Origin: Planctomycetota bacterium
Lineage (GTDB): Bacteria > Planctomycetota > PLA2 > JAEUHO01
Direction: 5' to 3'
Assembly: GCA_965222115.1 (NCBI GenBank)
Contig: CBDCTJ010000007.1
Span: forward strand, 1,600,001-1,664,000
DNA: 64,000 nucleotides
Shown here: piece after piece, positions 7,181 through 21,355 of the stretch
Position numbering within the stretch: the first letter of the stretch is position 1
Layout of the letters: every line of letters begins with the position of its first letter
The notes under the pieces: generated by a model
What the model was told of the DNA's origin: nothing
The model's input: only the letters and a program-made list of their open reading frames with translations
Database searches by the model: none
Made by a program: the position numbers and the translations under genes

Positions 7181-8020
7181 ATGAGTACCTTTGGCAAGAT
7201 TCTTGTCGTCGTGAACTTGGGCTTGGCAGCCGCCTTCTTGGGCAGCGCAGCCAACTACCTGGGTCACCAAGACACCGTGGCGCATAAGTTTGATGCGTTT
7301 AAGAAGAAGACCACCGACGAAAAGTCGTTGATGCAGGAAGAGATCGACAAGAAGAATCGCGACCTGCAAGCCGCCAACACCAACTTGCGCAAGGCGATTT
7401 CCGAACGCGATATCGCGCAGACGGCCGCCTCGCGTTCCGACGCACAGTCAAAGAATGACCAAGAGGCCTACAAGGTCCTTGCGGGCAATCTTTCCGTTGC
7501 GCAGCGCGCCGTGGACCGCATGTCGGCCACCGCCAATGCCGACAAGGCCATGATCAGTAGTCTTCGTCAAGATCGCGACCAGATGAAGACGGCTTGGGAC
7601 GACGCCAAGGAACGCTTGAATAGCGCCTTGAGCCGACTCGCCGCCGCCACACGCAACGTTGAGAAGCTTGAAAACATAGGCCAGATCACGGCCGCCAAGC
7701 TCGGTTCACTTGAGGAAGAGAACCGCCAGCTTCGCTTCCAACTCGAAGGCGTGGCCCGCAAGGCGCCCAGCCTCGTGAAGTTCAATCAGCCCGCCCAGCA
7801 AGGCCGTGTCGTAACGGCCGGTGGCGATCTCGTCACGATCTCGCTCGGCGAGGAAGATGGCGTCAAGCGCGGCTACCGCTACACCGTTGCGCGTGGTCGT
7901 GAATACATCGCCACCATTCAAATCGAAGACACGCAGGCCAAGCAGTCCTCGGGTGTTATCGTCCGCAACATGTCCAAGGGCGACGTCCAACAGGGCGACT
8001 CGGTCATTAACGCCAACTAG
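7181..8020 (+). CDS. Hypothetical membrane-anchored coiled-coil protein with C-terminal beta domain
   Basis: AGGAG RBS. N-terminal hydrophobic helix (KILVVVNLGLAAAFLG), long heptad-rich region, C-terminal VTISLGEEDGVKRGYRYTV. Confidence 0.85.
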   Translation: MSTFGKILVVVNLGLAAAFLGSAANYLGHQDTVAHKFDAFKKKTTDEKSLMQEEIDKKNRDLQAANTNLRKAISERDIAQTAASRSDAQSKNDQEAYKVLAGNLSVAQRAVDRMSATANADKAMISSLRQDRDQMKTAWDDAKERLNSALSRLAAATRNVEKLENIGQITAAKLGSLEEENRQLRFQLEGVARKAPSLVKFNQPAQQGRVVTAGGDLVTISLGEEDGVKRGYRYTVARGREYIATIQIEDTQAKQSSGVIVRNMSKGDVQQGDSVINAN

Positions 8021-8732: not shown

Positions 8733-9785
8733 ATGGCCAAACTCTTTGAGTGGCTGATCGGCAAGTTTTCAGTCGACATGGGTATCGACTTGGGAACCGC
8801 GAACACGCTCGTTTGTGTTCAAGGTCGCGGCATCATTCTTAATGAGCCAAGCGTTGTGGCCGTAAAGAAGGGAACCAACAAGGTTCTGCTCGATGGTCGC
8901 GCCGTCGGTGACACCGCCAAGGAAATGCTTGGAAAAACACCGGGCAATATCGTGGCCATTCGTCCCTTGAAGGACGGCGTAATTGCCGACTTCGAGATCA
9001 CCGAAGCCATGTTGCGCTATTTTATCTACAAGGTACACGACCGCACCTGGGCGGTGCATCCCCGTGTGGTCATTGCCATTCCGTATGGCATTACACCGGT
9101 TGAAAAGCGCGCTGTGATCAACTCGGCCGAACGCGCGGGCGCACGCAAAGTCTACTTGATTGAAGAGCCCATGGCCGCTGGCATTGGCGTGGGGTTGCCC
9201 ATCACCGAACCGCAGGCCTCCATGATTGTTGACATTGGTGGCGGTACTACTGAGGTGGCCGTGATTTCGCTGGCCGGCATTGTCAAAGCCAACTCGCTGC
9301 GAACTGCCGGTGACTCGATGGACGAAGCCATCGTCACGCATATGCGCAACACCTACAACCTGCTCATCGGCGAGCAGACAGCGGAGAAGGTAAAGATCGG
9401 CATTGGCAGTGCGTATCCCCTCAAGCGTGAAATGACCATGGACGTGCGCGGGCGCGACGTGAAGCAGGGCTTGCCCCGCAAGGTCGTGGTCACCAGCGAA
9501 GAGATTCGCGAGGCGCTGCAAGATCCTGTGCGCGGCATTGTGGACACGGTCAAGAACACCCTCGAGCAGACGCCGCCCGAGTTGGCGGCCGATTTGATCG
9601 ACAGCGGCGTGGTGGTGGCGGGCGGCGGCGCGCTACTGCGAGGGCTCGATCGCGTGCTCGCCGAAGAAATCAACCTTCCGGTGCGCGTGGCCGAGGACCC
9701 ACTCACCGCGGTGGCCCGTGGCACAGGCGTATTCCTCGAGAAGATCAAAGACCTCAAAGTGGCCATGGACTCGGCGGAAGACTAG
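8733..9785 (+). CDS. mreB: Rod shape-determining protein MreB
   Basis: Motifs [47 protein letters not shown]. Confidence 0.98.
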
Positions 9786-10012
9786 CCGTTCCAGGCGGCG
9801 CGAAATCGTTGCACAGAGCTTGCAATCAGATGCGGCTCGAATGGCTAGACTGTCTAGCGGTTGGGGGATAATCGGGAAAGGTCCCCAAGGTCTGGTGTGA
9901 GGCGAATTCTCTGCGATTGCAGGGTCGTCATTACAGCCCACCACGCGGGGACGGGCGTGGCAATAGGTCATGAGTCGATTCGTTTTGAATCTTGGAGGCA
10001 CAACGGTTCTGC

Positions 10013-10918
10013 ATGCGACTCCATCGTCAACATGCCTGGGGTGCATTCTTGCTGGTGCTCTTCGCATTGCCGCTCATCAAGCCGAACGGACTCGAGCTTA
10101 TTGAGCGTCCGGTGGGGGCCGTGGACTCGTGGTTTGCGGAAGTGCCGGGTCTCAATCCGCGTTTGCTCAAGTCAACGGCCGAGTCAGCGGACGGTAATGA
10201 TCAACGTACCAAGACGCTTGAGCGCGCCTTGCAGCAGTTGTGGCATCACGTGCAGCGAGTGCGTGCGCAGGCCGCAAAGGCCAATGAACTTAGCCAAACG
10301 CTGTCGCGCAGCGAGTTGGATCGCCGTCCATTGGTTGTTCCGGCGCGTGTGCTTCGTGCTCATGATCCCGCACGGCGCCGGCGCTCGATTTTGATCGATG
10401 TGGGGGCCGACGATGGGGTGGTGGAGGGGCACCCAGTTGTATTTGGCAGTACCTATTTCGGTCGCGTGCGCGTTGTTCGCGCGCGTTCAGCACGCGTGCA
10501 GCTCATCACCGACCGCGACAGTCGCTTGGAGGTTCTGATCCCCACCACGAGCGGAGAAATGGTGCGTGGGTATGCGCGGCGCATGGGTCGGCGAGACGGC
10601 GCGGATGTGCTTTCCATCGACTTTGCGCGTATGAAGCGTTCCTATGGTTCGATTCCCGAATCAGCGCCCGTCTTTACGGCCAATTTCGATGAGCGCGTTC
10701 CTGCCCACCTGTTGGTGGGTCGCATTGTGGAGATGACCGACGCCGACGGCGACGGCATTCCATCCATTCTGGTCGAGCCCGCGATGGATTTGGACACCAC
10801 AACGGATGTGTTCGTGCTCAAGACGCGTTCGCCTCTGGCGGGGAGGGCCACGCGGAATACAAAGCCAGCGAAGCGCACCGAACCCGGTCTTCATCGCAAC
10901 GCGAAACGAAAGCAGTAG
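10013..10918 (+). CDS. mreC: Rod shape-determining protein MreC
   Basis: TM plus coiled coil; ARVL...ILIDVGADDGV, GRV...ARVQLITD, P..LLVGRI; located after mreB. Confidence 0.88.
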   Translation: MRLHRQHAWGAFLLVLFALPLIKPNGLELIERPVGAVDSWFAEVPGLNPRLLKSTAESADGNDQRTKTLERALQQLWHHVQRVRAQAAKANELSQTLSRSELDRRPLVVPARVLRAHDPARRRRSILIDVGADDGVVEGHPVVFGSTYFGRVRVVRARSARVQLITDRDSRLEVLIPTTSGEMVRGYARRMGRRDGADVLSIDFARMKRSYGSIPESAPVFTANFDERVPAHLLVGRIVEMTDADGDGIPSILVEPAMDLDTTTDVFVLKTRSPLAGRATRNTKPAKRTEPGLHRNAKRKQ

Positions 10919-10922
10919 CTCT

Positions 10923-11435
10923 GTGGGTGCGGTCATGCTTTTCATGCTGCTTCTCTTGGCGGCCGCCATTCCCGATGTAGCGCCCTCCTTCTTGGGGCTC
11001 GCGAGCTACCCCCCCGACGTTTGGCTCGCACTCACCATCTACTTGGCCGCGCGAGCCAAGGGCTTCCGCGCTGTGGGATGGGGCATCACCATCGGGCTCA
11101 TTCGCGACTGCCTCTCACTCGACCCGCTGGGCACCAACGGCTTTGTGCTTGGCGCCGTGGCGCTCATCTTCGCGGAGGGAGCGCGGTCGCGGGGGCGTAT
11201 GGACTCGGCGAGTCGCTTCGTTTCGCTGTTCGCGGCTTCCGTCTTGGCGAGCTGGATCTATGCACTGCGCGTGATTCCGCTAGAGGGGGCATGGCCCTCC
11301 TTTGCCACGTGGCTTGAAGCGTTTCCCGTTGCGCTGTGGACCACGCTTTTCGCGGGGTTGTTGTTGTATCCCTTGATGGATCGCTTTGCGCTCCTTGACG
11401 ACTTGTGTGGGAGGTCCCATGCGTTTTCGTCGTAG
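10923..11435 (+). CDS. mreD: Rod shape-determining protein MreD
   Basis: Hydrophobic protein with PD..L and GLIRD.LS..PLG; located between mreC and mrdA. Confidence 0.85.
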   Translation: MGAVMLFMLLLLAAAIPDVAPSFLGLASYPPDVWLALTIYLAARAKGFRAVGWGITIGLIRDCLSLDPLGTNGFVLGAVALIFAEGARSRGRMDSASRFVSLFAASVLASWIYALRVIPLEGAWPSFATWLEAFPVALWTTLFAGLLLYPLMDRFALLDDLCGRSHAFSS

Positions 11436-14055
11436 GTTGATGGTGCTCTATCTCGCCTTTGCGTGCGCGCTCAGCATCGTGTGGATTCGCGTGGCGCATA
11501 TGCAGTGGGTCGAAGGCGCCGCGTGGACCGAGAAGGCTGACAAAGCGCGGCAGACCGAACGCATGCTTGAGGCCCGGCGAGGCGCCATCGTGGATCGCCA
11601 AGGCGTGGTCCTGGCCGAAGATGAACCGGTGTTTCAGTTACTACTCATTGCGCGCGACTGGAAGCATCGCGATCGCGGTCGCAAACGATGCACGGCTTGC
11701 GGGGTTGTTCACTTCCCCGGCTACGGTGGGCGTTTCTCCAAGACGTGTTCATGCCAACGCTATCGATCCGGTAGCAAGAAGCCCTATCAACCCGAAGCCG
11801 GATCTCGGGGGCGCAAGGACACGCTGGTTGATCTGGCACCGGGCGATGTGTGGCCCATTGAGAAGGCGCTCGGTATGCCGCGCGGTGAACTCGAGGCGCG
11901 TGCCCAACGACGTTTGACAGAGATTGAGAAACTTGTCAAGGCCCATAAGCGCACGTGGATCGAGGCCGGAGCACGCGAGTTCGTTATCAAGGAAGCCGTT
12001 CGGCAACGACGCGACGACCTTTCGGCGCGGCCCCATGTGCTTGCCACGGATGTCGATGAATCGGTGGTGCGCCTGATTCAACTCGATGAAGAGGGGGGCT
12101 ATCGCGGACTGTCGGTGCGCGTTCAGCAGCGACGCCGCTATCCGAAGGGCGACTTTGCGCCGCACTTGCTTGGATTTACGAGCAAGGTGGCCACGTACGA
12201 CGAACTGGCCGAGCTCCGCCAGCGCTACGGACACGACATGGTCACACCCGATTCACGCGTGGGTCGCCGGGGTGTGGAGCGTGCGCAAAACGACCACTTG
12301 CATGGCAAGCCCGGTGTGCAGGTGCGCCAACTCGATGCGAATGGCAGTTTCGCCACCATCGTGCATGAATCGCCACCCGAGTCGGGCAACACAGTTCAGT
12401 TGGCGGTGGACTGGAAAAAGAGCGTGGCGGCGCAAAAGATCTTGGAAGAGATCGCCACACGCGACAAGTACTACCCCAAGGGTCGGCCGTCCGCGGCATT
12501 CGTCATGATCGACGCCGTTAGCGGTGAGATTCTGCTTTGGGCGGAGACGCCGCGCTTCAATCTTGATGAGGGACTCGACGAACTCTTTGCCACCGCCACG
12601 GGCAGTGCCAAAGCCAACATCGATGTGGGGCAGTGGTTTCCTGTCGATGCGAAAACGGCGAGTGGCATGGACTTGACGTTTTGGCGCGCCAACCTCGTTG
12701 TCCCGGCGCCGTTGTCGATGAGCCGAGTATCGCAAGTTGCGGTGGAACCCGGAAGCACGTTCAAGCCATTGATTGCTCTGGCGATGCTTGAAAGTGGAAC
12801 GCCGCTTCCCTTCCCGCATTACACATGCAGCCGAGGTGATCGTCGTAAGCCCGCGTGTCGCGGTTGCGGAACGATGGACTTGGCCAACGCCACCTGTGTG
12901 TCCTGCAATAAGTTCTTCGCACGAAACTTTCGTGCGGGCAAAGCGTGGTCGCGGTATCGCGCGTTTAGTGGAGGCTTCCTTCAGCGGTTGGGCATCGGTC
13001 AAACACCGAGTCCAGAACTTCGTGAAGCGGGCTCGGGGCGTTGGCTTCGTCGGGGATACGACTTTTCTATCGAGCGCGTCGTTCACAGCGTGGAGGAGCA
13101 GTTGCGCGACGAGCACGCCGCCGCGCTCGAACGCAAGTCCGAAGAAGAGACGATTCACACCGTAGCGCCCGACATCGTGTTTCAGCGCAGTCGCCACTGT
13201 CCGCCCACGGCGGGAGGGGACCCGAGTTACGTGCGCAAACGACTCGTGGAAATCGTGCGCTACGTTGCTCGTGAGAGCCTTTCTTCACGCGTCGAGGTGT
13301 CTGTAAAGCGACTTAAGGGCGGCAATCGACAGTTGCGCCTGCGCTTTGAAGTGCGCGCGTTGGATCCTCCGCGCTGGTATGTATTGCGCGGCGGTGCGCC
13401 GGCGATTCCCAAGTTGTGGCAGAAATACGTTCGTCGCAAGACGCTTGGCATTGAAGGGCACGTGGCCTACGGCGGACGCGTGTGGTTCGAAGACGGATTT
13501 GATCTCAAATTCGGACGCGCAACACCCCAGGCCCATCCCATGGTGCACAACGAGGACGGAAGCAATGTGGCGCTGGGGCAAGGCCCCGTGCTCGTTACGC
13601 CGCTGCAAATGGCGCGCGCCATGGCGGTGCTTGCCAATGGCGGTCGGCTCGTGAGCGCGCATGTGGCCCATGCGATCGGTGGGGAGCGCGTGCCGCATCG
13701 CTCCGAATCGTTGGGTTTGAGTGGGCACCATATCGAGCGTGTGCGAGGCGGTATGCGCATGGTGGTGAGTCATCCGCGAGGCACGGCCTACCACAAGGGC
13801 GCGTGGGCTGCGGTGCCCGCCACGGTGTATGGAAAGACCGGAACGGCTCAGTTGAGCAAGGCGTGGGCGCCGTGGACGCGCAGTGGCGAAAAGGCGCCCG
13901 CGTGGCACCACTGGTTTGTCGGCTTTGCAGAGCGCGCGGGGGCCAACCCCGTCGCATTCGCATGCGTTTTCCATTCACGCACTGAGAAATCGGGATCCGG
14001 ATCCACGGCGGGTGTCGCCGGTCGCAAGATTCTCGAAACCTGGTTTACGAAGTAA
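11419..14055 (+). CDS. mrdA: Class B penicillin-binding protein 2 with large insertions
   Basis: N-terminal TM; RGAIVDRQG, RRYPKG, GRRGVE; transpeptidase motifs STFK, SCN, KTGTAQ; GGAGG RBS before ATG 11419. Confidence 0.92.
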   Translation: MRFRRRLMVLYLAFACALSIVWIRVAHMQWVEGAAWTEKADKARQTERMLEARRGAIVDRQGVVLAEDEPVFQLLLIARDWKHRDRGRKRCTACGVVHFPGYGGRFSKTCSCQRYRSGSKKPYQPEAGSRGRKDTLVDLAPGDVWPIEKALGMPRGELEARAQRRLTEIEKLVKAHKRTWIEAGAREFVIKEAVRQRRDDLSARPHVLATDVDESVVRLIQLDEEGGYRGLSVRVQQRRRYPKGDFAPHLLGFTSKVATYDELAELRQRYGHDMVTPDSRVGRRGVERAQNDHLHGKPGVQVRQLDANGSFATIVHESPPESGNTVQLAVDWKKSVAAQKILEEIATRDKYYPKGRPSAAFVMIDAVSGEILLWAETPRFNLDEGLDELFATATGSAKANIDVGQWFPVDAKTASGMDLTFWRANLVVPAPLSMSRVSQVAVEPGSTFKPLIALAMLESGTPLPFPHYTCSRGDRRKPACRGCGTMDLANATCVSCNKFFARNFRAGKAWSRYRAFSGGFLQRLGIGQTPSPELREAGSGRWLRRGYDFSIERVVHSVEEQLRDEHAAALERKSEEETIHTVAPDIVFQRSRHCPPTAGGDPSYVRKRLVEIVRYVARESLSSRVEVSVKRLKGGNRQLRLRFEVRALDPPRWYVLRGGAPAIPKLWQKYVRRKTLGIEGHVAYGGRVWFEDGFDLKFGRATPQAHPMVHNEDGSNVALGQGPVLVTPLQMARAMAVLANGGRLVSAHVAHAIGGERVPHRSESLGLSGHHIERVRGGMRMVVSHPRGTAYHKGAWAAVPATVYGKTGTAQLSKAWAPWTRSGEKAPAWHHWFVGFAERAGANPVAFACVFHSRTEKSGSGSTAGVAGRKILETWFTK

Positions 14056-14121: not shown

Positions 14122-15252
14122 GTGGATCGTGCCCTCGGCCTCGGAGACCGCATCAAGCGAGCCAACTGGTTCTTGCTTGGTTTGGGATGTCTGCTGGCCT
14201 TGGCGGGTGTGATCACCGTGGGGGCCGCGTCGCGCCAGGGCGGCGTTCAATTTGGCGCCGTGCAAATGAAGTGGTTTGCAGTGGGCGTCACGCTTTGCTT
14301 GTTAACCCTTTCGGTGCCGTACCGCCGCATCGTGGCGCTGCGCTATTTTTGGTATGCTGTGGGCCTCGTAGCGCTCGCACTGTGTCTGGTGATTGGCCGC
14401 GGACCCAACGTGGCACGGTGGATTCAAATCGGATCCTTCCGCGCGCAGCCCAGCGAGATCATGAAGGTTGTTATGGTGATCGTGCTGGCAGGGTACTTGC
14501 GCTACGGTCGTAGCTATCGCGAAGTCTCCGGACTCGTTCGACCTATCCTGCTCACGCTGATTCCCATCGCGCTTATCTTCAAGCAGCCCGACCTCGGTAC
14601 GGCCATGTTGTTGCTGCCCGTTTTGCTGGTCATGTTGTATGTGGCGGGGGCCCGTCGGCGTCATCTCATTGGCTTGGTGTTGATTGGCTTGCTGGGTGCC
14701 GCTGTGCTCGTGGCCACGGGCATGATCAAGGAGTATCAGCTTAAACGCGTGTACTCGTTCTTGATGCAGTCCAATGAGAACAAGGTGCTATTGCGTGGCG
14801 ACGGGCATCAGGTCTACCACAGCAAGATCGTCGTGGGTTCGTCGTCGCTCACGGGCAACGGTACGGGGGAAGCGGTTCGCGATGCCGTACGCTTCTTGCC
14901 CGAGCGGCACAGCGACTTCATCTTCCCCGTATTCGTTTCTGCGTTTGGCTTAGCCGGTGCGTCGCTTTTATTTCTGGGCTATCTGCTATTCATTGGACTC
15001 TTGCTACGAACGGCGATCCACGTGCGAGAACCTAGTGGACGGTTGCTGGCCGTGGGCGTCGCCACGCTCTTCGCCTGCCAATCCGTCATCAATCTCGCTA
15101 TGACCATCGGCCTCCTGCCCATCGTCGGCATGCCGCTCCCCTTCCTCAGTTACGGCGGCAGTTCCATGCTCACCTCCTTCGTCGCATTGGGCCTCGTCCT
15201 CAACGTCGGCGCCGACCACCCCGTCGAGTTCGGCCGCGGCGACTTCGATTGA
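14122..15252 (+). CDS. rodA: SEDS glycosyltransferase RodA
   Basis: Motifs RWI.IG...QPSE, QPDLGTA, LPERHSDFIF, GMPLPFLSYGGSS. Confidence 0.95.
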   Translation: MDRALGLGDRIKRANWFLLGLGCLLALAGVITVGAASRQGGVQFGAVQMKWFAVGVTLCLLTLSVPYRRIVALRYFWYAVGLVALALCLVIGRGPNVARWIQIGSFRAQPSEIMKVVMVIVLAGYLRYGRSYREVSGLVRPILLTLIPIALIFKQPDLGTAMLLLPVLLVMLYVAGARRRHLIGLVLIGLLGAAVLVATGMIKEYQLKRVYSFLMQSNENKVLLRGDGHQVYHSKIVVGSSSLTGNGTGEAVRDAVRFLPERHSDFIFPVFVSAFGLAGASLLFLGYLLFIGLLLRTAIHVREPSGRLLAVGVATLFACQSVINLAMTIGLLPIVGMPLPFLSYGGSSMLTSFVALGLVLNVGADHPVEFGRGDFD

Positions 15253-15332
15253 TCCAATTCGATGGATCCGAAATGCGCGTTATGCTTGAGGATCGCATAG
15301 ACCGAAACGCAATCACCCGCAGGAGCGCCTCC

Positions 15333-16690
15333 ATGAAAGCAAGTACTGCGCTTTTGATTACGGTGGCGATGATTACATTGCTCGCGGCCTTCTTGATCGC
15401 GACGAAGCGGGCGGGCGCGCGTGTTTGGGGCGACGATCAGTGGGATGAAACGGTTGAGGAGTTCGTGCGCAATCGTGTGGCGGCGACGTATGTGGATCGC
15501 TTGGATCCCGAACGTGGGCGCGAAGCGTTCTATCGGGCCATGGATGCCTATGTCGACTTCGACCAATACTGCGATTTCATTCCGCCCGAAGAGCTAAACG
15601 AGTGGCGCGAAGATACGCAGGGTCGTTACGCCGGCCTCGGCATCAAGATCAATGAGGTTCCGGAGGGGTTGGAGATCATTGGTGTGTTGCCCGGTGGTCC
15701 GGCGTCACGTGCGGGCCTTGTGATTGGGCAGACAATTGTGCGTGCCGATGGCGTGTCGCTCGCGGGCAAAGATGCGATGGAAATCACGCGCATGCTGAAA
15801 GGGCCCGCCGACTCAACGGTGCGCGTAGGCATCATGCCCGGTCCGCGACCGGAGAGTGGCCCGCCGATGGGACCCGAACAAGAAATCGTTGTCACTCGTG
15901 GGCATGTCACACCGCCTACCGTGTTTACGAAACGCGTTGGGCCCCGCAAAGACATTGGCTTGATACGACTCAAGGACTTTAGCGATGAGTCGGCCGATGC
16001 CTTTGACCGAGGCATTACGCAACTCGTTTCGACCACGCCACCCGTGCAGGCATTGATCCTGGACTTGCGTCACAACGGTGGCGGCGTGTTGGAAGCCGCC
16101 ATTCGCGTGGCCGATCGCTTTCTTGATACCGGCGACATTGTTCGCATGGAGGGTCGCGTGGCGGCCACCAATCGTCGCCGCGGTGCCGCTCGCGATGACA
16201 ACGACGTATTGCATGTCCCGCTGGTCGTACTCGTGGATGGCCACAGCGCGAGTGCAAGCGAAGTCGTTGCCGGTGCACTGCAGGATCACCGACGTGCGGT
16301 CATAGTGGGTTCGCGCACGTACGGGAAGTTCTTGGTGCATCGATTACCGAGATTCCTTCGCGCGGCGTAGCCGTCAAGCTCACAACATCGCGTTACTACA
16401 CCCCCTTGGGCCGCTCGTATCAGGCCAAGAAAACGCGACCGGGTGTGCGTCCCAAGCCCGCAGGTCTCTTGCCCGACGTAATTGTCGCTCTGGACAAGGA
16501 ACAGACCAAGAAGCTTGAAGAACACTGGGAAGACGAAGAATCGCAATCTTGGGGGCGCAACGACGTTCTCGACGATCCTGTAACCAGTGGCGTCGATCCC
16601 CAGTTGGCGCGTGCCATCAAGCTCCTTCGCGGCGAACTCGCCCTTCAGCGCATTCGCAAGAGCCGCCGAACCGTTCCCCGAAACGGGTAG
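15333..16690 (+). pseudogene. ctpA: S41 C-terminal processing protease (CtpA/Prc), split by an apparent 1-nt deletion at ~16339; true pseudogene or assembly error
   Basis: PDZ domain (GLGI...GGPASRAGL), ILDLRHNGGG, SASASE, RTYGK. Homology continues in another frame as SITEIPSRGVAVKLTTSRYYTPLGRSYQ...GLLPDV...DPQLARA up to the stop at 16690. Confidence 0.88.
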
Positions 16691-17848: not shown

Positions 17849-18859
17849 ATGCCGCGCAACGCACGATTTGCGAGTTATCTGACGGGGATGGTCCTCATGT
17901 GCTGCGCGTTCCGCGCAGTATCGATGCCCGCTATGGCAAAGGAGCCGGCTCCCGAAGGCAGCGCAGCGTGCGAACTCTCCGCCCTAATGTTGCGGTCGTC
18001 CCACGCGTGGCGTGCCGCCTACGACGGTGTGCGAGCCGGCCTCGAACGTGCCCGTCTCCCGCGCATTTGTTTGGACGCCGTGGACACGCCTGATGCGCGC
18101 ACGGCGTTGGAGAAACGGCTGCGGGATTCCGGCGATGAACGCAAGGCGCACGGCAAATCGCGATTCCCAGTCTTCTTGGTTGGTAATGGGACGGTTCGCG
18201 AACTCTCGACGTTCGCCTCGCGCGAGCCGCGAATTGCCATTGTTGAGCGCTATGCGGCCGGCGATTCGCTTATGGAGCCCCTTCCCACACTCTCAGCGGA
18301 CACCGCCATCGTTTTCGCCCGTCGCGATGCGGCGCGCGTCGGACGTGTATTGCGACTCTTGGCAAGTCAGCAAAGCCGTGCCGCCGTGCCGGTGTACATG
18401 GACGCGACGTCTGCGTCAGCGCGCAAACAGGCCTCGACATTTCTGCATGCTGCGGGCGCGCGTTTGGTGGGTGCCGGTGAACGTCCATTGGCTGTTCTTC
18501 ATGTGCGACTCACCGATCAACCGCGCGAGTCCGTAGATCGGTCCTACGAACGTGCAAAGGCACGAGCCACGTCGTGGCGCGTGCCGCTCATTGCTGATGA
18601 GCGCGAGCGCTGGAATCAAGGGGCAAGCATTGTGCTCATGCCCGACTACGAGCTGGTGGGACGAATTGCCGCCAATGTTGGTCGACTATTGACTGCTGGG
18701 AACCCTCCCCCCAAACAACCCACCGCGGTGCACGGCCTGTTGATGTGGATCAACTTGGCCGAGGCTGACCGCGCGGGACTCACGTTGCCAATGGTGTTGC
18801 TTGCGCAGGCCGATCGAATTCGCAAAGGGCTGGCGCATACACGAAAGCCCAAGCGATGA
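17849..18859 (+). CDS. Exported protein, ABC_sub_bind/YfiR-like periplasmic ligand-binding protein
   Basis: Signal peptide. The C-terminus DYELVGRIAA...LMWINLAEADRAGLTLPMVLLAQADRI resembles the INLKTAxxLGLxIPxxLLxxAD tail of these families. Confidence 0.6.
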   Translation: MPRNARFASYLTGMVLMCCAFRAVSMPAMAKEPAPEGSAACELSALMLRSSHAWRAAYDGVRAGLERARLPRICLDAVDTPDARTALEKRLRDSGDERKAHGKSRFPVFLVGNGTVRELSTFASREPRIAIVERYAAGDSLMEPLPTLSADTAIVFARRDAARVGRVLRLLASQQSRAAVPVYMDATSASARKQASTFLHAAGARLVGAGERPLAVLHVRLTDQPRESVDRSYERAKARATSWRVPLIADERERWNQGASIVLMPDYELVGRIAANVGRLLTAGNPPPKQPTAVHGLLMWINLAEADRAGLTLPMVLLAQADRIRKGLAHTRKPKR

Positions 18860-20361
18860 GTCGCTCGCTCGTCATTCTCACGTGCGTGCTCGTGGGGGGC
18901 GTTGTGTTGGTGTTGGGCGCATTGATTCTTCAATGGATCGCCGCCGATGATCGCGCCATGGATCTTCGCCAAGCCGAACGCATTCAACAGTCAACCGAAA
19001 GCGAGATGAAAGTGCTCGCGAAGCGACTCGTGGAGGAGTCGAGCGAGCTTGCCAAGGGCGTGAGTCGCCATCGCGATGAGGCGCTTCGGGAGTGGCTGGA
19101 GCAGGAACCCCTGGCGCTGTACCGCGAGGCGAGCAATCCGGATGTTGTTGATGTAGAGGCATTGATCAATGACCTGATTCCGCGGCTGCGTCTGTGGGGA
19201 CGCGACGAGCAAGATCGCGTGGCGCTCTTGGTGGACCGGCTGGAATTGGTTGGGGACCGCCGCATTGAGACGGCGATGTCGGAGCTTAGTGCGCAGGCCG
19301 CTGCGGATCGCGGACGCGCTCGTGAGCAACGAAGCCGTCGATTGACGTCGCGATTGCTCTGGCTGTTGCTGGGGATGGCCACGCTACTGGCGCTTGCACT
19401 GTGGCGACTGGTGGCGCGCCCGGTTGAACAGACCCGTCGATCCGTGAGACGCATTGCCAGTGGCGACTTGAGTACGCCCGTGGACGTGCCCACGCACGGT
19501 GCGCGTGAGTTTCAGTCGCTTGCCACGGATGTTGAGTCGATGCGTACGCAACTCAAGGCAAGTACCGAGGGTCTCGAACAAGAAGTCGCGCGCAAGACCG
19601 CCTCGCTACAACAGAGTCTTGAGGCGCGCACCAAGACGTTGGATGAACTGAAAGAGACGCAACAACGACTTGTTCAAGCCGCAAAGATGGCAGGGCTTGG
19701 CACCCTGGCCGGAGGGTTGGCCCACGAGTTCAACAACCTGATCGGCGGCGTTCTCGGTTGCATAGAGAATGCCATGGCAGAAACCACGCAATCCGATGTG
19801 AAAGAAGATTTGGTTGTGGCCAAGCGCACTGCGCAGCGAGCCACGAAGTTGGTTCAGGCATTACTTGATGTTGCGCGACCCGGCGACCGCGAGATGACGG
19901 CGGTGTCGCTGCGCGAAATTGCCGATGACGTGGTGCGCGCCGCGCGTCCCACCGCAGCACGCGACGGAAAATCGATCGAGTGGGAGACGCAGGATGAGGC
20001 CGTTGTGCTCGGTGATGCGGGCCAACTCCACCAAGTCACCCTCAATCTGCTTACAAATGCCCTGCAGCACGCCCAACCCGGTGGACGTGTCGTCGTCTCC
20101 ACGATGACGTCTGGCGGTGACGCCGTGGTGCGCGTTCAGGATGATGGCCCGGGCATCCCCGTGGAGCTTCGCGAGCGCATATTCGAGCCCTTCTATACGA
20201 CTCGGCCGGAGGGTACCGGCTTGGGTCTTTTTGTGTCGTATGGCATCGCAGAGCGCCACGGAGGCGCTATTTCGGTCATCGAGGTGCCCATCGGCGCGTG
20301 CGTGGAACTCCGAATCCCGCGCCACCAGCAGTCCACGCGGCCGTCCGACTCCGGAGATTGA
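18856..20361 (+). CDS. HAMP-domain sensor histidine kinase (NtrB-like)
   Basis: Two TM helices, HAMP, H-box LAHEFNN, N-box NLLTNA, DDGPGI, IFEPFYTT, GTGLGL. Confidence 0.93.
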   Translation: MSRSLVILTCVLVGGVVLVLGALILQWIAADDRAMDLRQAERIQQSTESEMKVLAKRLVEESSELAKGVSRHRDEALREWLEQEPLALYREASNPDVVDVEALINDLIPRLRLWGRDEQDRVALLVDRLELVGDRRIETAMSELSAQAAADRGRAREQRSRRLTSRLLWLLLGMATLLALALWRLVARPVEQTRRSVRRIASGDLSTPVDVPTHGAREFQSLATDVESMRTQLKASTEGLEQEVARKTASLQQSLEARTKTLDELKETQQRLVQAAKMAGLGTLAGGLAHEFNNLIGGVLGCIENAMAETTQSDVKEDLVVAKRTAQRATKLVQALLDVARPGDREMTAVSLREIADDVVRAARPTAARDGKSIEWETQDEAVVLGDAGQLHQVTLNLLTNALQHAQPGGRVVVSTMTSGGDAVVRVQDDGPGIPVELRERIFEPFYTTRPEGTGLGLFVSYGIAERHGGAISVIEVPIGACVELRIPRHQQSTRPSDSGD

Positions 20362-20443
20362 CTGGCTACAACAGGTGTCTGGCGCGGCAGTTGCGTTTCC
20401 CTCGGCTGACCTCTCCCTCAGCTGACCAAGGCAAGGAGTCCCC

Positions 20444-21355
20444 ATGGAACCGGCACGCTCCCGTCCTCCCGCACCCTCATCCAGCTACGATCAACCCACG
20501 CTGAGTCGATTGGGGCAGCCCACGGTACTGGTAATCGACGATGAGGAGTCGATGCGTTACTCGCTTGCGCGCGGCCTTCGGCGTGAGGGCTTTACGTGCG
20601 TCACGTCTGAGACGGGTCGCGCGGGTGTTGATCGGTTCATGGATGGCGGCATCGACGCGGTGCTCACCGACGTTCGGCTGCCCGACCTGTCGGGGATCGA
20701 TATTGTCTCTGTGTTGGGCGAAATCAATCCCGATGTGCCGGTCATTGTTATGACCGGTTACGGCACGATGGACACGGCCCTTGAAGTCATGCGTCGCGGT
20801 GCCGTGGACTTTGTCGCCAAGCCCCTCGTCGTGGAAGATGTCATTCGCACCATTTCGCGCGCCATCGAAGAACGGCGCAGTAAACACGAGAATCGCCGAT
20901 TGCGCGCAATCGTTGAGCGCACCATGTCGCCCGAGAAGTTCCGCGCCGTGCAAGACGAACTGGCGGCCCGCGATGTCTCCGCCACCCACAATGTGCCGCC
21001 GACACATATCAACCGGGCGATATCACAGAATGGCTACTCTGCATCTCCATCACAAGGGACCGATGCCCAGACACCTACGCGGCGTGAAGTCGATGCCAAG
21101 ATTACGGAGCGCACGTTTCGCGCCGCCATGCCGGTGACGCCGTCGGGTCAGCCCTGGCCCCTTCGAGATGCCGTGCGACTCTTTGAAACGGCCTATGTGA
21201 AGGACTTGCTTCGACGTGCCGAAGGCAATATTGCCGCTGCGTCCCGTCTGGCGGGCATTAGCCGCCCCAACTTTCACAAGAAGCTAAAGAACCTGGATGT
21301 GGATGCACAGCCGTTCAAAGATGCCGCAAAACGTGGACGGTCGCAGTCCATGTAG
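20444..21355 (+). CDS. Response regulator with receiver domain and Fis-type HTH, no AAA+ domain
   Basis: Receiver motifs VLVIDDE, LTDVRLP, MTGYG, FVAKP; C-terminal FETAYVKDLL...GNIAAASRLAGISRPNFHKKL. Confidence 0.9.
   Translation: MEPARSRPPAPSSSYDQPTLSRLGQPTVLVIDDEESMRYSLARGLRREGFTCVTSETGRAGVDRFMDGGIDAVLTDVRLPDLSGIDIVSVLGEINPDVPVIVMTGYGTMDTALEVMRRGAVDFVAKPLVVEDVIRTISRAIEERRSKHENRRLRAIVERTMSPEKFRAVQDELAARDVSATHNVPPTHINRAISQNGYSASPSQGTDAQTPTRREVDAKITERTFRAAMPVTPSGQPWPLRDAVRLFETAYVKDLLRRAEGNIAAASRLAGISRPNFHKKLKNLDVDAQPFKDAAKRGRSQSM

Follow-up and report, generated by a model that had tools for sequence, protein, structure and literature searches.

What is a segment resembling a histidine-kinase ATPase domain doing in the middle of a cell wall transpeptidase? 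The question is raised by mrdA, the gene for penicillin-binding protein 2 (PBP2), in a 64,000-nucleotide stretch of a Planctomycetota genome (contig CBDCTJ010000007.1, positions 1,600,001 to 1,664,000, assembly GCA_965222115.1), here called the window. Between its SCN and KTG motifs the encoded protein contains 154 residues that an earlier reading of the sequence by eye, the original prediction, had described as an apparently dead ATPase fold of the GHKL (HATPase_c) type. The explanation that best accounts for the locus as a whole, and which we consider probable, is that the catalytic ATP-binding (CA) domain of a kinase was inserted in a loop of PBP2, is dead towards ATP, and acts as a non-catalytic accessory domain.

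A 154-residue insertion in PBP2

The frame of mrdA is free of stop codons over 11386-14055 on the + strand; the database form begins at M12 of this frame (ATG 11419), with TTG 11386 as an alternative open start. The gene and the landmarks around the insert are as follows.

11419..14055, + strand: mrdA, PBP2, a class B penicillin-binding protein (PBP) of 878 amino acids (PF03717, PF00905; best NCBIfam family TIGR03423)
12754..12765, + strand: SxxK motif, S446-T-F-K449 (STFK; S446 and K449 invariant in the 29-sequence alignment)
12820..12909, + strand: Cys cluster C470, C480, and C483 with S495-C496-N497 (SCN at 12901-12909; C470, C480, and S495-C496-N497 invariant in the 29 sequences)
13057..13518, + strand: insert of 154 residues (547-700), with high confidence a degenerate histidine-kinase CA domain (profile matches; model pLDDT 90; 7z8n_A at Z 12.7)
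13564..13587, + strand: NVALGQGP, where the transpeptidase fold resumes (G720 and Q721 invariant; HMMER alignments to 7kis, 6pl5, and 8zpc restart here)
13834..13845, + strand: KTGT motif (K806, G808, and T809 invariant in the 29 sequences)

The PBP_dimer domain (PF03717) was matched at an E value of 9.5e-24 (85.2 bits against a Pfam cut-off of 24.4) and the Transpeptidase domain (PF00905) at 4.5e-31 (108.6 bits against 22.1), the latter match being split in two by the insert. The best NCBIfam family was the PBP2 equivalog TIGR03423, at 256 bits and thus below its cut-off of 455 bits, a score that no genome among the 40 of the order attains (these same 40 genomes also make up the class). The closest solved relatives by sequence were PBP2/MrdA chains, with 6pl5_B first (E 5.1e-25). 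The same chain was the top fold match (E 2.8e-29; target template modelling [TM] score 0.68) of a full-length model with a predicted local distance difference test (pLDDT) score of 85.7 and a predicted TM (pTM) score of 0.80, while the PBP2s of E. coli and Yersinia gave target TM scores of 0.74 to 0.78. Protein-atlas clusters for the whole protein were PBP2 only (0.97). The product of mrdA is the Rod-complex transpeptidase PBP2 with its catalytic motifs intact; as had been claimed, STFK, SCN, and KTGT were all found, and they are invariant across the 29 aligned sequences.

In solved PBP2s the site of the insert is a loop of 15 to 22 residues, lying between residues 425 and 442 in 7kis_A, 404 and 426 in 6pl5_B, and 387 and 402 in 8zpc_A, and HMMER alignments to solved PBP2s break off after an LGxG...G segment and restart at ...NVALGQG. 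The family to which this genome belongs (f1; 29 genomes including this one) yielded 25 PBP2 sequences for alignment, in which the spacing from SCN to GQG was 215 to 229 residues in 15 and 64 to 77 residues in 10, with the gap at a single position. The 154-residue segment is a true insertion into a surface loop of the transpeptidase domain. The insert residues quoted in the original prediction are present and its start at 13057 was exact, while the end it gave, 13510, fell 8 nucleotides short of the conserved ...FGR boundary at 13518.

Separately assembled contigs from four runs of one study bridged both insert junctions with zero differences: that at 13057 was crossed by record 7 of run X3 and record 11 of run X4, and that at 13518 by record 5 of run X2 and record 8 of run X3. 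The contig of run X1 covers the entire stretch and may be the source of the assembly. As both junctions are bridged by contigs of separate runs, the insert is not an assembly chimera, the outcome that had been named as fatal to the idea. One low-depth contig of run X3 leaves the window sequence at 13504, within the insert, and continues with 131 unlike letters; it may represent a strain variant or an assembly-graph branch.

A nearest-protein search with the insert region recovered only the protein itself and one relative of 75% identity, and a related-loci search with the single protein gave matches to the PBP flanks in unrelated metagenome-assembled genomes only. Protein-atlas scores for the insert, 0.85 to 0.86 to Transpeptidase fragments, were uninformative.

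Relationship to kinase CA domains

A profile of 11 orthologous inserts with zero kinases included (A1) was searched against 1.84e9 (1.84 billion) representative proteins, giving 5820 matches at E <= 1e-3. The best 150 of these comprised 11 insert-bearing PBP2s, 135 CA-domain proteins, three immunoglobulin/fibronectin type III (Ig/fn3) repeat proteins, in which many short stretches were matched, and one fragment; CA domains were called with a hidden Markov model (HMM) made from the genome's own PF02518 domains, overlapping the best profile match. When 15 of the kinase matches were scanned with Pfam, HATPase_c lay under the match in all 15 and a receiver domain was also present in 13, which are therefore hybrid kinases. 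Among the sequences of solved structures, GacS (7z8n_A) was the top match both with A1 (E 2.4e-4) and with a profile of 15 inserts (A4; E 6.1e-6), followed by RetS at E 0.003 (A4). The entry 7Z8N is the GacS kinase homodimer, according to the available part of PMC12148439. In a reversed-sequence control, 0 of 142 scored with the insert profile. A singleton protein of 147 amino acids on a 603-nucleotide contig (P0022) resembles profile positions 52-125 in its C-terminal half (E 2.7e-10) and has an unrelated N terminus; it was set aside as a relative of the insert, being probably a fragment or a chimeric short contig.

Searched against the genome's own 16,837 six-frame open reading frames (ORFs) at E <= 10, the insert profile found only itself and one kinase CA domain. 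Comparison with eight own-genome CA domains using hhalign gave an identical register at E 1.6e-4, with a probability of only 50.6%. When aligned by MAFFT with 16 hybrid-kinase CA domains, the insert matched them collinearly over the full span between the DFxL start and the FWFT end, and the motifs DFxL, vPxxvGGDPxRL, LRFeVR, and GxxxWF were common to inserts and kinases and kept in order. The hydropathy profiles of inserts and kinases, compared over 141 shared columns, gave a correlation of r = 0.69, whereas shifted registers gave values between -0.28 and 0.32; this result is supportive only, since the alignment was optimised. The insert covers one CA domain exactly; in kinases the match starts a few residues past HisKA, about 40 before PF02518, and ends with PF02518. 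A reciprocal HMM of the 16 hybrid-kinase CA domains found the insert in 13 of the 15 insert-bearing PBP2s and in none of the 10 insert-less ones, a test that is not independent, as its kinases were chosen among the profile's own matches. The by-eye alignment to hybrid-kinase CA domains proved right in its stated register.

Predicted fold of the insert

AlphaFold2, run on the insert alone with a 15-sequence alignment, gave a model of mean pLDDT 90.0 and pTM 0.85 with elements in the order b-a-b-b-a-b-b-loop-a-b-b (b, strand; a, helix): strand 2-4, helix 5-26, strands 39-44 and 51-53, helix 56-74, strands 78-86 and 92-101, a loop, helix 119-126, and strands 130-133 and 141-149. These elements recur at residues 547-695 of the full-length model, in which confidence within the insert dips only at 571-580, an extension specific to the window, and at 651-660, the lid remnant. 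The predicted model is a Bergerat-type alpha/beta sandwich with the element order of kinases.

Comparison of the insert model with 48,161 representative chains using VIA-align gave 43 chains at Z >= 8, led by 7z8n_A (Z 12.7, root mean square deviation 3.2 A, 135 residues). Among the matches listed, 50 of 50 were kinase-type CA domains, including those of ETR1, NtrB, HK853, RetS, DivL, CheA, and PDK2, and the identity of kinases to the insert in the structural alignments was 5 to 22%. With Foldseek, 107 matches reached E <= 1e-3, of which RetS, ETR1, and GacS scored best (E 2-6e-6), and those listed were all kinase CA domains. In both structure searches the matches listed were thus kinase CA domains only, in line with the original prediction, and sequence and fold independently give GacS 7z8n as the top match. 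As modelled, the insert spans from the first strand after the kinase dimerisation helix to the last strand and keeps the kinase-type alpha/beta sandwich.

Loss of the ATP site and compartment

The N box of CA domains carries two Asn residues that serve Mg-ATP coordination. The state of this and the other motifs was counted in 15 inserts aligned with 16 hybrid-kinase CA domains, and the corresponding segments of the window's insert are listed here.

13213..13245, + strand: GGDPSYVRKRL, counterpart of kinase GDPxRLxQ at the start of helix 2 (G 15/15, D 9/15, R 11/15; aligned to GacS GDPQRL)
13246..13278, + strand: degenerate N box, VEIVRYVARES in place of NLxxNAxKFT (Asn 0/15 in both columns)
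13333..13365, + strand: LRLRFEVRALD, a conserved strand followed by the lost G1 box (F 13/15 and R 10/15 kept; G1 Asp 0/15)
13366..13431, + strand: F box, ATP lid, and G2 box replaced by a short remnant, then a short helix (model loop 102-118 of lower pLDDT, helix 119-126)
13468..13494, + strand: YGGRVWFED, counterpart of the kinase GxGSTFWFT terminal hairpin (W 11/15, F 12/15, Y 2/15; strand 141-149)

Neither of the two N-box Asn columns held Asn in any of the 15 inserts, compared with 15 of the 16 kinases. At the G1 box (DxGxG) the Asp was present in 0 of 15 inserts and the two Gly in 3 and 0, the F-box columns were gaps in 14, and the G2 Gly columns held Gly in 0 and 1, with a lid segment about 13 to 15 residues shorter than in kinases. 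The loss of N box, DxGxG, and G2 that had been read from the one sequence was borne out in 15/15 inserts. Retained were the F of the DF start (14/15), the P before GGD (14/15) and its G (15/15), the F of LRF (13/15), and, near the insert end, the Gly before the last hairpin (15/15) and the W (11/15) and F (12/15, plus Y in 2/15) of WF. With its ATP motifs lost, established kinase biochemistry and the GacS G2 mutants argue that the insert can neither bind nor hydrolyse ATP, and the absence of ATP binding is, on this sequence evidence and by analogy, very probable. In the available text of PMC8498467, ATP binding is abolished in G2-box mutants of GacS and is lost in RetS.

The membrane topology of PBP2 bears on where the insert resides.

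11437..11493, + strand: single N-terminal membrane anchor, residues 7-25 (the only 19-residue windows with mean Kyte-Doolittle hydropathy >= 1.6)

The anchor is preceded by MRFRRR; the best hydropathy elsewhere was 1.34 and the maximum within the insert 0.38. With a single N-terminal anchor, everything downstream, including the insert, is therefore extracytoplasmic, and the periplasmic location originally proposed agrees with this, as the sequence around the insert contains no hydrophobic segment. The cytoplasm is where kinase domains of the GHKL type normally work on ATP.

Distribution and evolution

Across the 29 genomes of f1 the insert was present in 16, absent in 11, and undetermined in 2. 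Four genomes were left out of the alignment of 25 PBP2s: in G018 the contig ends inside the gene and the insert is present; G006 was scored as lacking the insert because only a 24-nucleotide gap separates the flanking matches (the gene lies in two frames); G025 has only a C-terminal PBP2 fragment; and G010, a genome 75% complete, has no PBP2 match. The insert is in frame and 140 to 154 residues long in 16 genomes of nine genera, whose PBP2s are overall only 35 to 45% identical. The search for orthologues in related genomes that had been suggested thus recovered the same insert at the same site in 15 other genomes. A second family of the order, f2, lacks it, as its class B PBPs match TIGR03423 contiguously in frames of 640 to 710 amino acids. 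A sample of 401 genomes of the phylum contained 11 in which the insert profile was matched over its full length (E <= 1e-26), all of them from f1; outside f1 the insert was not found in this sample, the next best match (4.6e-14) lying in a kinase-sized frame. One orthologue (P0005) bears the source label Planctomycetota.

A maximum-likelihood tree of the 25 PBP2s with the insert removed grouped the 15 insert-bearing sequences with three insert-less ones (genera g4 and g5), the clade being supported at 100/100. Two insert changes are required by the best tree and a single one by 11% of the bootstrap trees. The tree points to a single gain of the insert, combined with one clean loss or else with a branch that the tree does not resolve.

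Origin and role of the insert

That the insert originated from a kinase CA domain and has its fold is hardly in doubt, though several results weigh against such an origin. The original prediction had looked to a match with PF02518, and this failed to appear: at E <= 10, PF02518 was silent on the insert and on the 11 orthologous inserts alike, and the relationship is visible only via the family profile and the fold. Similarly, a scan of the genome with PF02518 gave 32 matches, with the insert not among them, an HMM of the eight own-genome CA domains had zero matches in the 25 PBP2s, and the window's own protein reached only 16.2 bits with the hybrid-kinase HMM. Pfam and NCBIfam found nothing in the insert alone, and Pfam on the 11 orthologous inserts gave only three unrelated single-member matches (E 0.017-0.085). 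The silence of PF02518, the three Ig/fn3 proteins in the best 150, and a structural identity to kinases of only 5 to 22% would fit a chance or convergent resemblance of an unrelated alpha/beta sandwich, which we nevertheless consider very improbable: sequence and structure searches agree independently on GacS 7z8n, kinases make up 135 of the 150 best matches in one register over the whole domain with the four motifs in order, and the reversed-sequence control was empty. A chimeric assembly or dead gene can be regarded as refuted. The genome consists of seven contigs and is 90% complete, and the low-depth X3 contig diverges at 13504; the junctions are nevertheless bridged without differences, the same insert occupies the same site in 15 other genomes, the frame is open, and the catalytic motifs are all intact.

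As to role, a whole HATPase_c-type CA domain has entered a surface loop of the transpeptidase domain. There it would most likely influence the cross-linking activity of the RodA-PBP2 synthase, either by offering a surface for docking or regulation that is particular to this lineage or through steric effects. Such a role would be accessory and non-catalytic, since ATP is in all likelihood neither bound nor hydrolysed. Retention by selection for some function appears probable, as the ratio of nonsynonymous to synonymous substitutions (dN/dS) was below 1 in 6/6 pairs and the insert is in frame in 16 genomes. The chief rival, with a smaller but substantial chance, is a tolerated passenger, that is, a CA segment that landed in a permissive loop, decayed as an ATPase, and persists without a function of its own, being harmless and rarely excised cleanly. 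It keeps this standing because of the lack of a known partner, fold-core conservation, relaxed constraint, the presence of other inserts, and the possible loss in g4/g5. Several observations weigh in its favour and against an accessory role. By the Nei-Gojobori method (six pairs), dN/dS was 0.47 to 0.71 for the insert and 0.18 to 0.45 for the rest of the transpeptidase domain, 1.3 to 2.6 times higher in 6/6 pairs and indicative of relaxed constraint, although the ratios are rough because dS is near saturation. The conserved insert residues are mostly fold-core positions that are also conserved in kinases, and no insert-specific conserved surface stands out in the alignment. In genera g2, g3, and g15, decay of the GGD and WF motifs is more advanced. 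In the best tree, the insert-less PBP2s of g4 and g5 are nested within the 100/100-supported insert clade, which would imply one clean loss and so dispensability. Unrelated inserts also occur elsewhere in PBP2 of other family lineages, namely, about 30 to 45 residues in a helical region of the non-catalytic part in g7, g9, g11, and g16, and about 40 residues before the SxxK motif in g4 and g5 (loci L043-L054). Finally, the role proposed for the insert rests on analogy. Set against a passenger are the near-constant length of 140 to 154 residues, in frame in 16 genomes of nine genera whose PBP2s are only 35 to 45% identical, the dN/dS values below 1, and a confident insert model that implies a well-packed conserved core. 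A ligand sensor, in which the remodelled ATP pocket would bind a periplasmic small molecule (muropeptide or nucleotide-like) and tune transpeptidation, is unlikely. The GHKL pocket is a versatile ligand site, and the almost invariant W107 and P118 of the insert lie at the former lid, a lead only; the nucleotide-contacting motifs are, however, all gone, some 13 to 15 lid residues are deleted, model confidence is lowest in the remnant loop, and conserved polar pocket residues were not seen in the alignment.

Within the accessory-domain explanation, specific docking of a partner is a tentative proposal, made by analogy. ODD and UB2H, lineage-restricted inserted domains of class A PBPs, dock LpoA and LpoB, and their discoverers expected unrelated analogues in other phyla, as stated in the part of PMC3060616 that was available. 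The insert might, by a somewhat speculative extension, be a docking platform that couples RodA-PBP2 to a clade-specific periplasmic or outer-membrane regulator, a separately evolved counterpart of LpoA-ODD and LpoB-UB2H. A cytoplasmic signalling domain would then have been moved across the membrane, in a clade that appears to lack FtsZ. RetS, as described in the portion of its literature at hand, shows that an ATP-blind CA domain can work via protein contacts. A two-copy complex prediction of the insert gave a score of 0.00 and no answer, and weighs neither way.

Other features of PBP2 and its neighbourhood

The genes surrounding mrdA, and a second Cys cluster within it, are listed below.

8733..9785, + strand: mreB (NF010539 MreB, 501.5 bits against a cut-off of 293)
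9992..10918, + strand: mreC (PF04085 MreC, E 9.4e-22)
10806..11435, + strand: mreD, a borderline match (TIGR03426, 34.4 bits against a cut-off of 34.85)
14122..15252, + strand: rodA (PF01098, E 1.1e-76)
11689..11757, + strand: CxxC...CxC cluster (C91, C94, C110, C112), a zinc-ribbon-like insert in the N-terminal non-catalytic part of PBP2 (29-sequence alignment)

The genes mreB-mreC-mreD-mrdA-rodA, all on the + strand, form an operon, which is the neighbourhood of a PBP2 gene. Antisense and overlapping ORFs within 12253-13974 gave zero family matches and were taken as products of high G+C rather than as genes. Of the cysteines in the zinc-ribbon-like insert, only C112 is invariant in the 29 sequences, the other three (C91, C94, and C110) being nearly so. 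This insert is present in all family members, whether or not they carry the kinase-like insert, and residues ~101-130 around it have a pLDDT of 48 to 62 in the model. C470, C480, and C483 lie in a beta-hairpin region and, together with the Cys at the x of SxN, may form a zinc site; the CRGC of the window's PBP2 is replaced by CHxC in most relatives. The arrangement is similar to the zinc site of A. baumannii PBP2, in which zinc is bound by Cys384 of SxD with D350, D365, and H371, according to the accessible text of PMC9974482.

Just upstream of mreB, at 7181-8020, lies a gene for a 279-amino-acid protein that has a hydrophobic segment at its N terminus as well as a long coiled coil, and for which no Pfam family was found. 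The gene is conserved and syntenic in 25 of the 29 family genomes and may encode a lineage-specific component of the Rod complex. As a partner of the insert, this ORF (7181-8017) was rejected, since it occurs in those 25 genomes regardless of the insert. Directly after rodA, an S41 (Ctp/Prc-type) peptidase gene with a PDZ domain (15249-16690) appears frameshifted near 16346: Pfam positions 1-130 of 165 were matched, similarity to the orthologues (present in 29/29 family genomes) ends at about residue 366, and the remainder of the S41 domain lies in another frame at 16406-16690, reflecting either a sequencing error or a pseudogene. A canonical two-component pair at 18856-21355, about 5 kb downstream, consists of a HAMP-HisKA-HATPase_c kinase and a receiver-HTH_8 regulator; the CA domain of this kinase was not matched by the insert profile at E <= 10. 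Elsewhere in the genome, a second class B PBP (664-amino-acid frame, C7:2051533-2053284) and a third Transpeptidase-domain protein (772-amino-acid frame, contig C1) both lack the insert. FtsZ (TIGR00065) was not found in this 90%-complete genome, and the same model was positive in 13 of 14 control genomes.

Comparison with known systems

In a literature search at the level of titles and abstracts, neither a PBP containing a kinase-like domain nor a GHKL pseudo-domain located in the periplasm was found described. With PBP2/MrdA (6pl5_B of the T. thermophilus RodA-PBP2; 7kis_A; 6g9p; 8tj3 of E. coli) the window's PBP2 has in common the anchor, the PBP_dimer and Transpeptidase domains, the SxxK/SxN/KTG motifs, the fold, and the gene order mreBCD-mrdA-rodA. 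It differs in the 154-residue kinase-derived domain that takes the place of the loop of 15 to 22 residues, in the extra Cys4 zinc-ribbon-like insert near the N terminus, and in its TIGR03423 score (256 bits against 455). Compared with the CA domain of hybrid kinases (PF02518; P. aeruginosa GacS 7z8n), the insert has the same fold and element order and is collinear in sequence over the whole domain; unlike it, the insert has no N-box Asn or G1 Asp, has the F box, G2 box, and ATP lid deleted, has no adjacent DHp/HisKA, is extracytoplasmic, and is silent to PF02518.

The kinase region of RetS (6dk7, 6dk8) was the top Foldseek match (E 2.3e-6), with a sequence E value of 0.003 and GGDPxRL in common with the insert. 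DivL (4q20), which we take to be catalytically inactive, matched the insert model at Z 9.6. Both have ceased to act as kinases but are cytoplasmic and retain the kinase architecture with a neighbouring DHp domain, and in RetS the lid loop is still present, whereas the insert has been removed from any kinase context and is embedded in a cell wall enzyme. Like ODD of PBP1A and UB2H of PBP1B, as characterised in the part of PMC3060616 to hand, the insert is lineage-restricted, newly acquired, and non-catalytic, and is part of a peptidoglycan synthase. LpoA and LpoB are, in the same partial account, the co-evolved regulators docked by ODD and UB2H, and they stimulate transpeptidation. ODD and UB2H have other folds, belong to another PBP class, and have known partners, so that the analogy is one of mechanism only.

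The insert-bearing PBP2 joins two known families in an undescribed architecture and compartment in one clade of uncultured Planctomycetota. Both families are textbook ones; what is unusual is their combination and the location, an ATP-blind GHKL-type domain in an essential cell wall synthase. As the curated Pfam and NCBIfam models miss the insert, the architecture is invisible to standard annotation. It offers a clean natural example of an entire domain that entered a loop of an enzyme and was put to new use, or was at any rate tolerated, with the insert-less sisters as natural controls. If docking of a regulator were true, it would represent a new way of controlling the Rod complex in a phylum with atypical cell biology.

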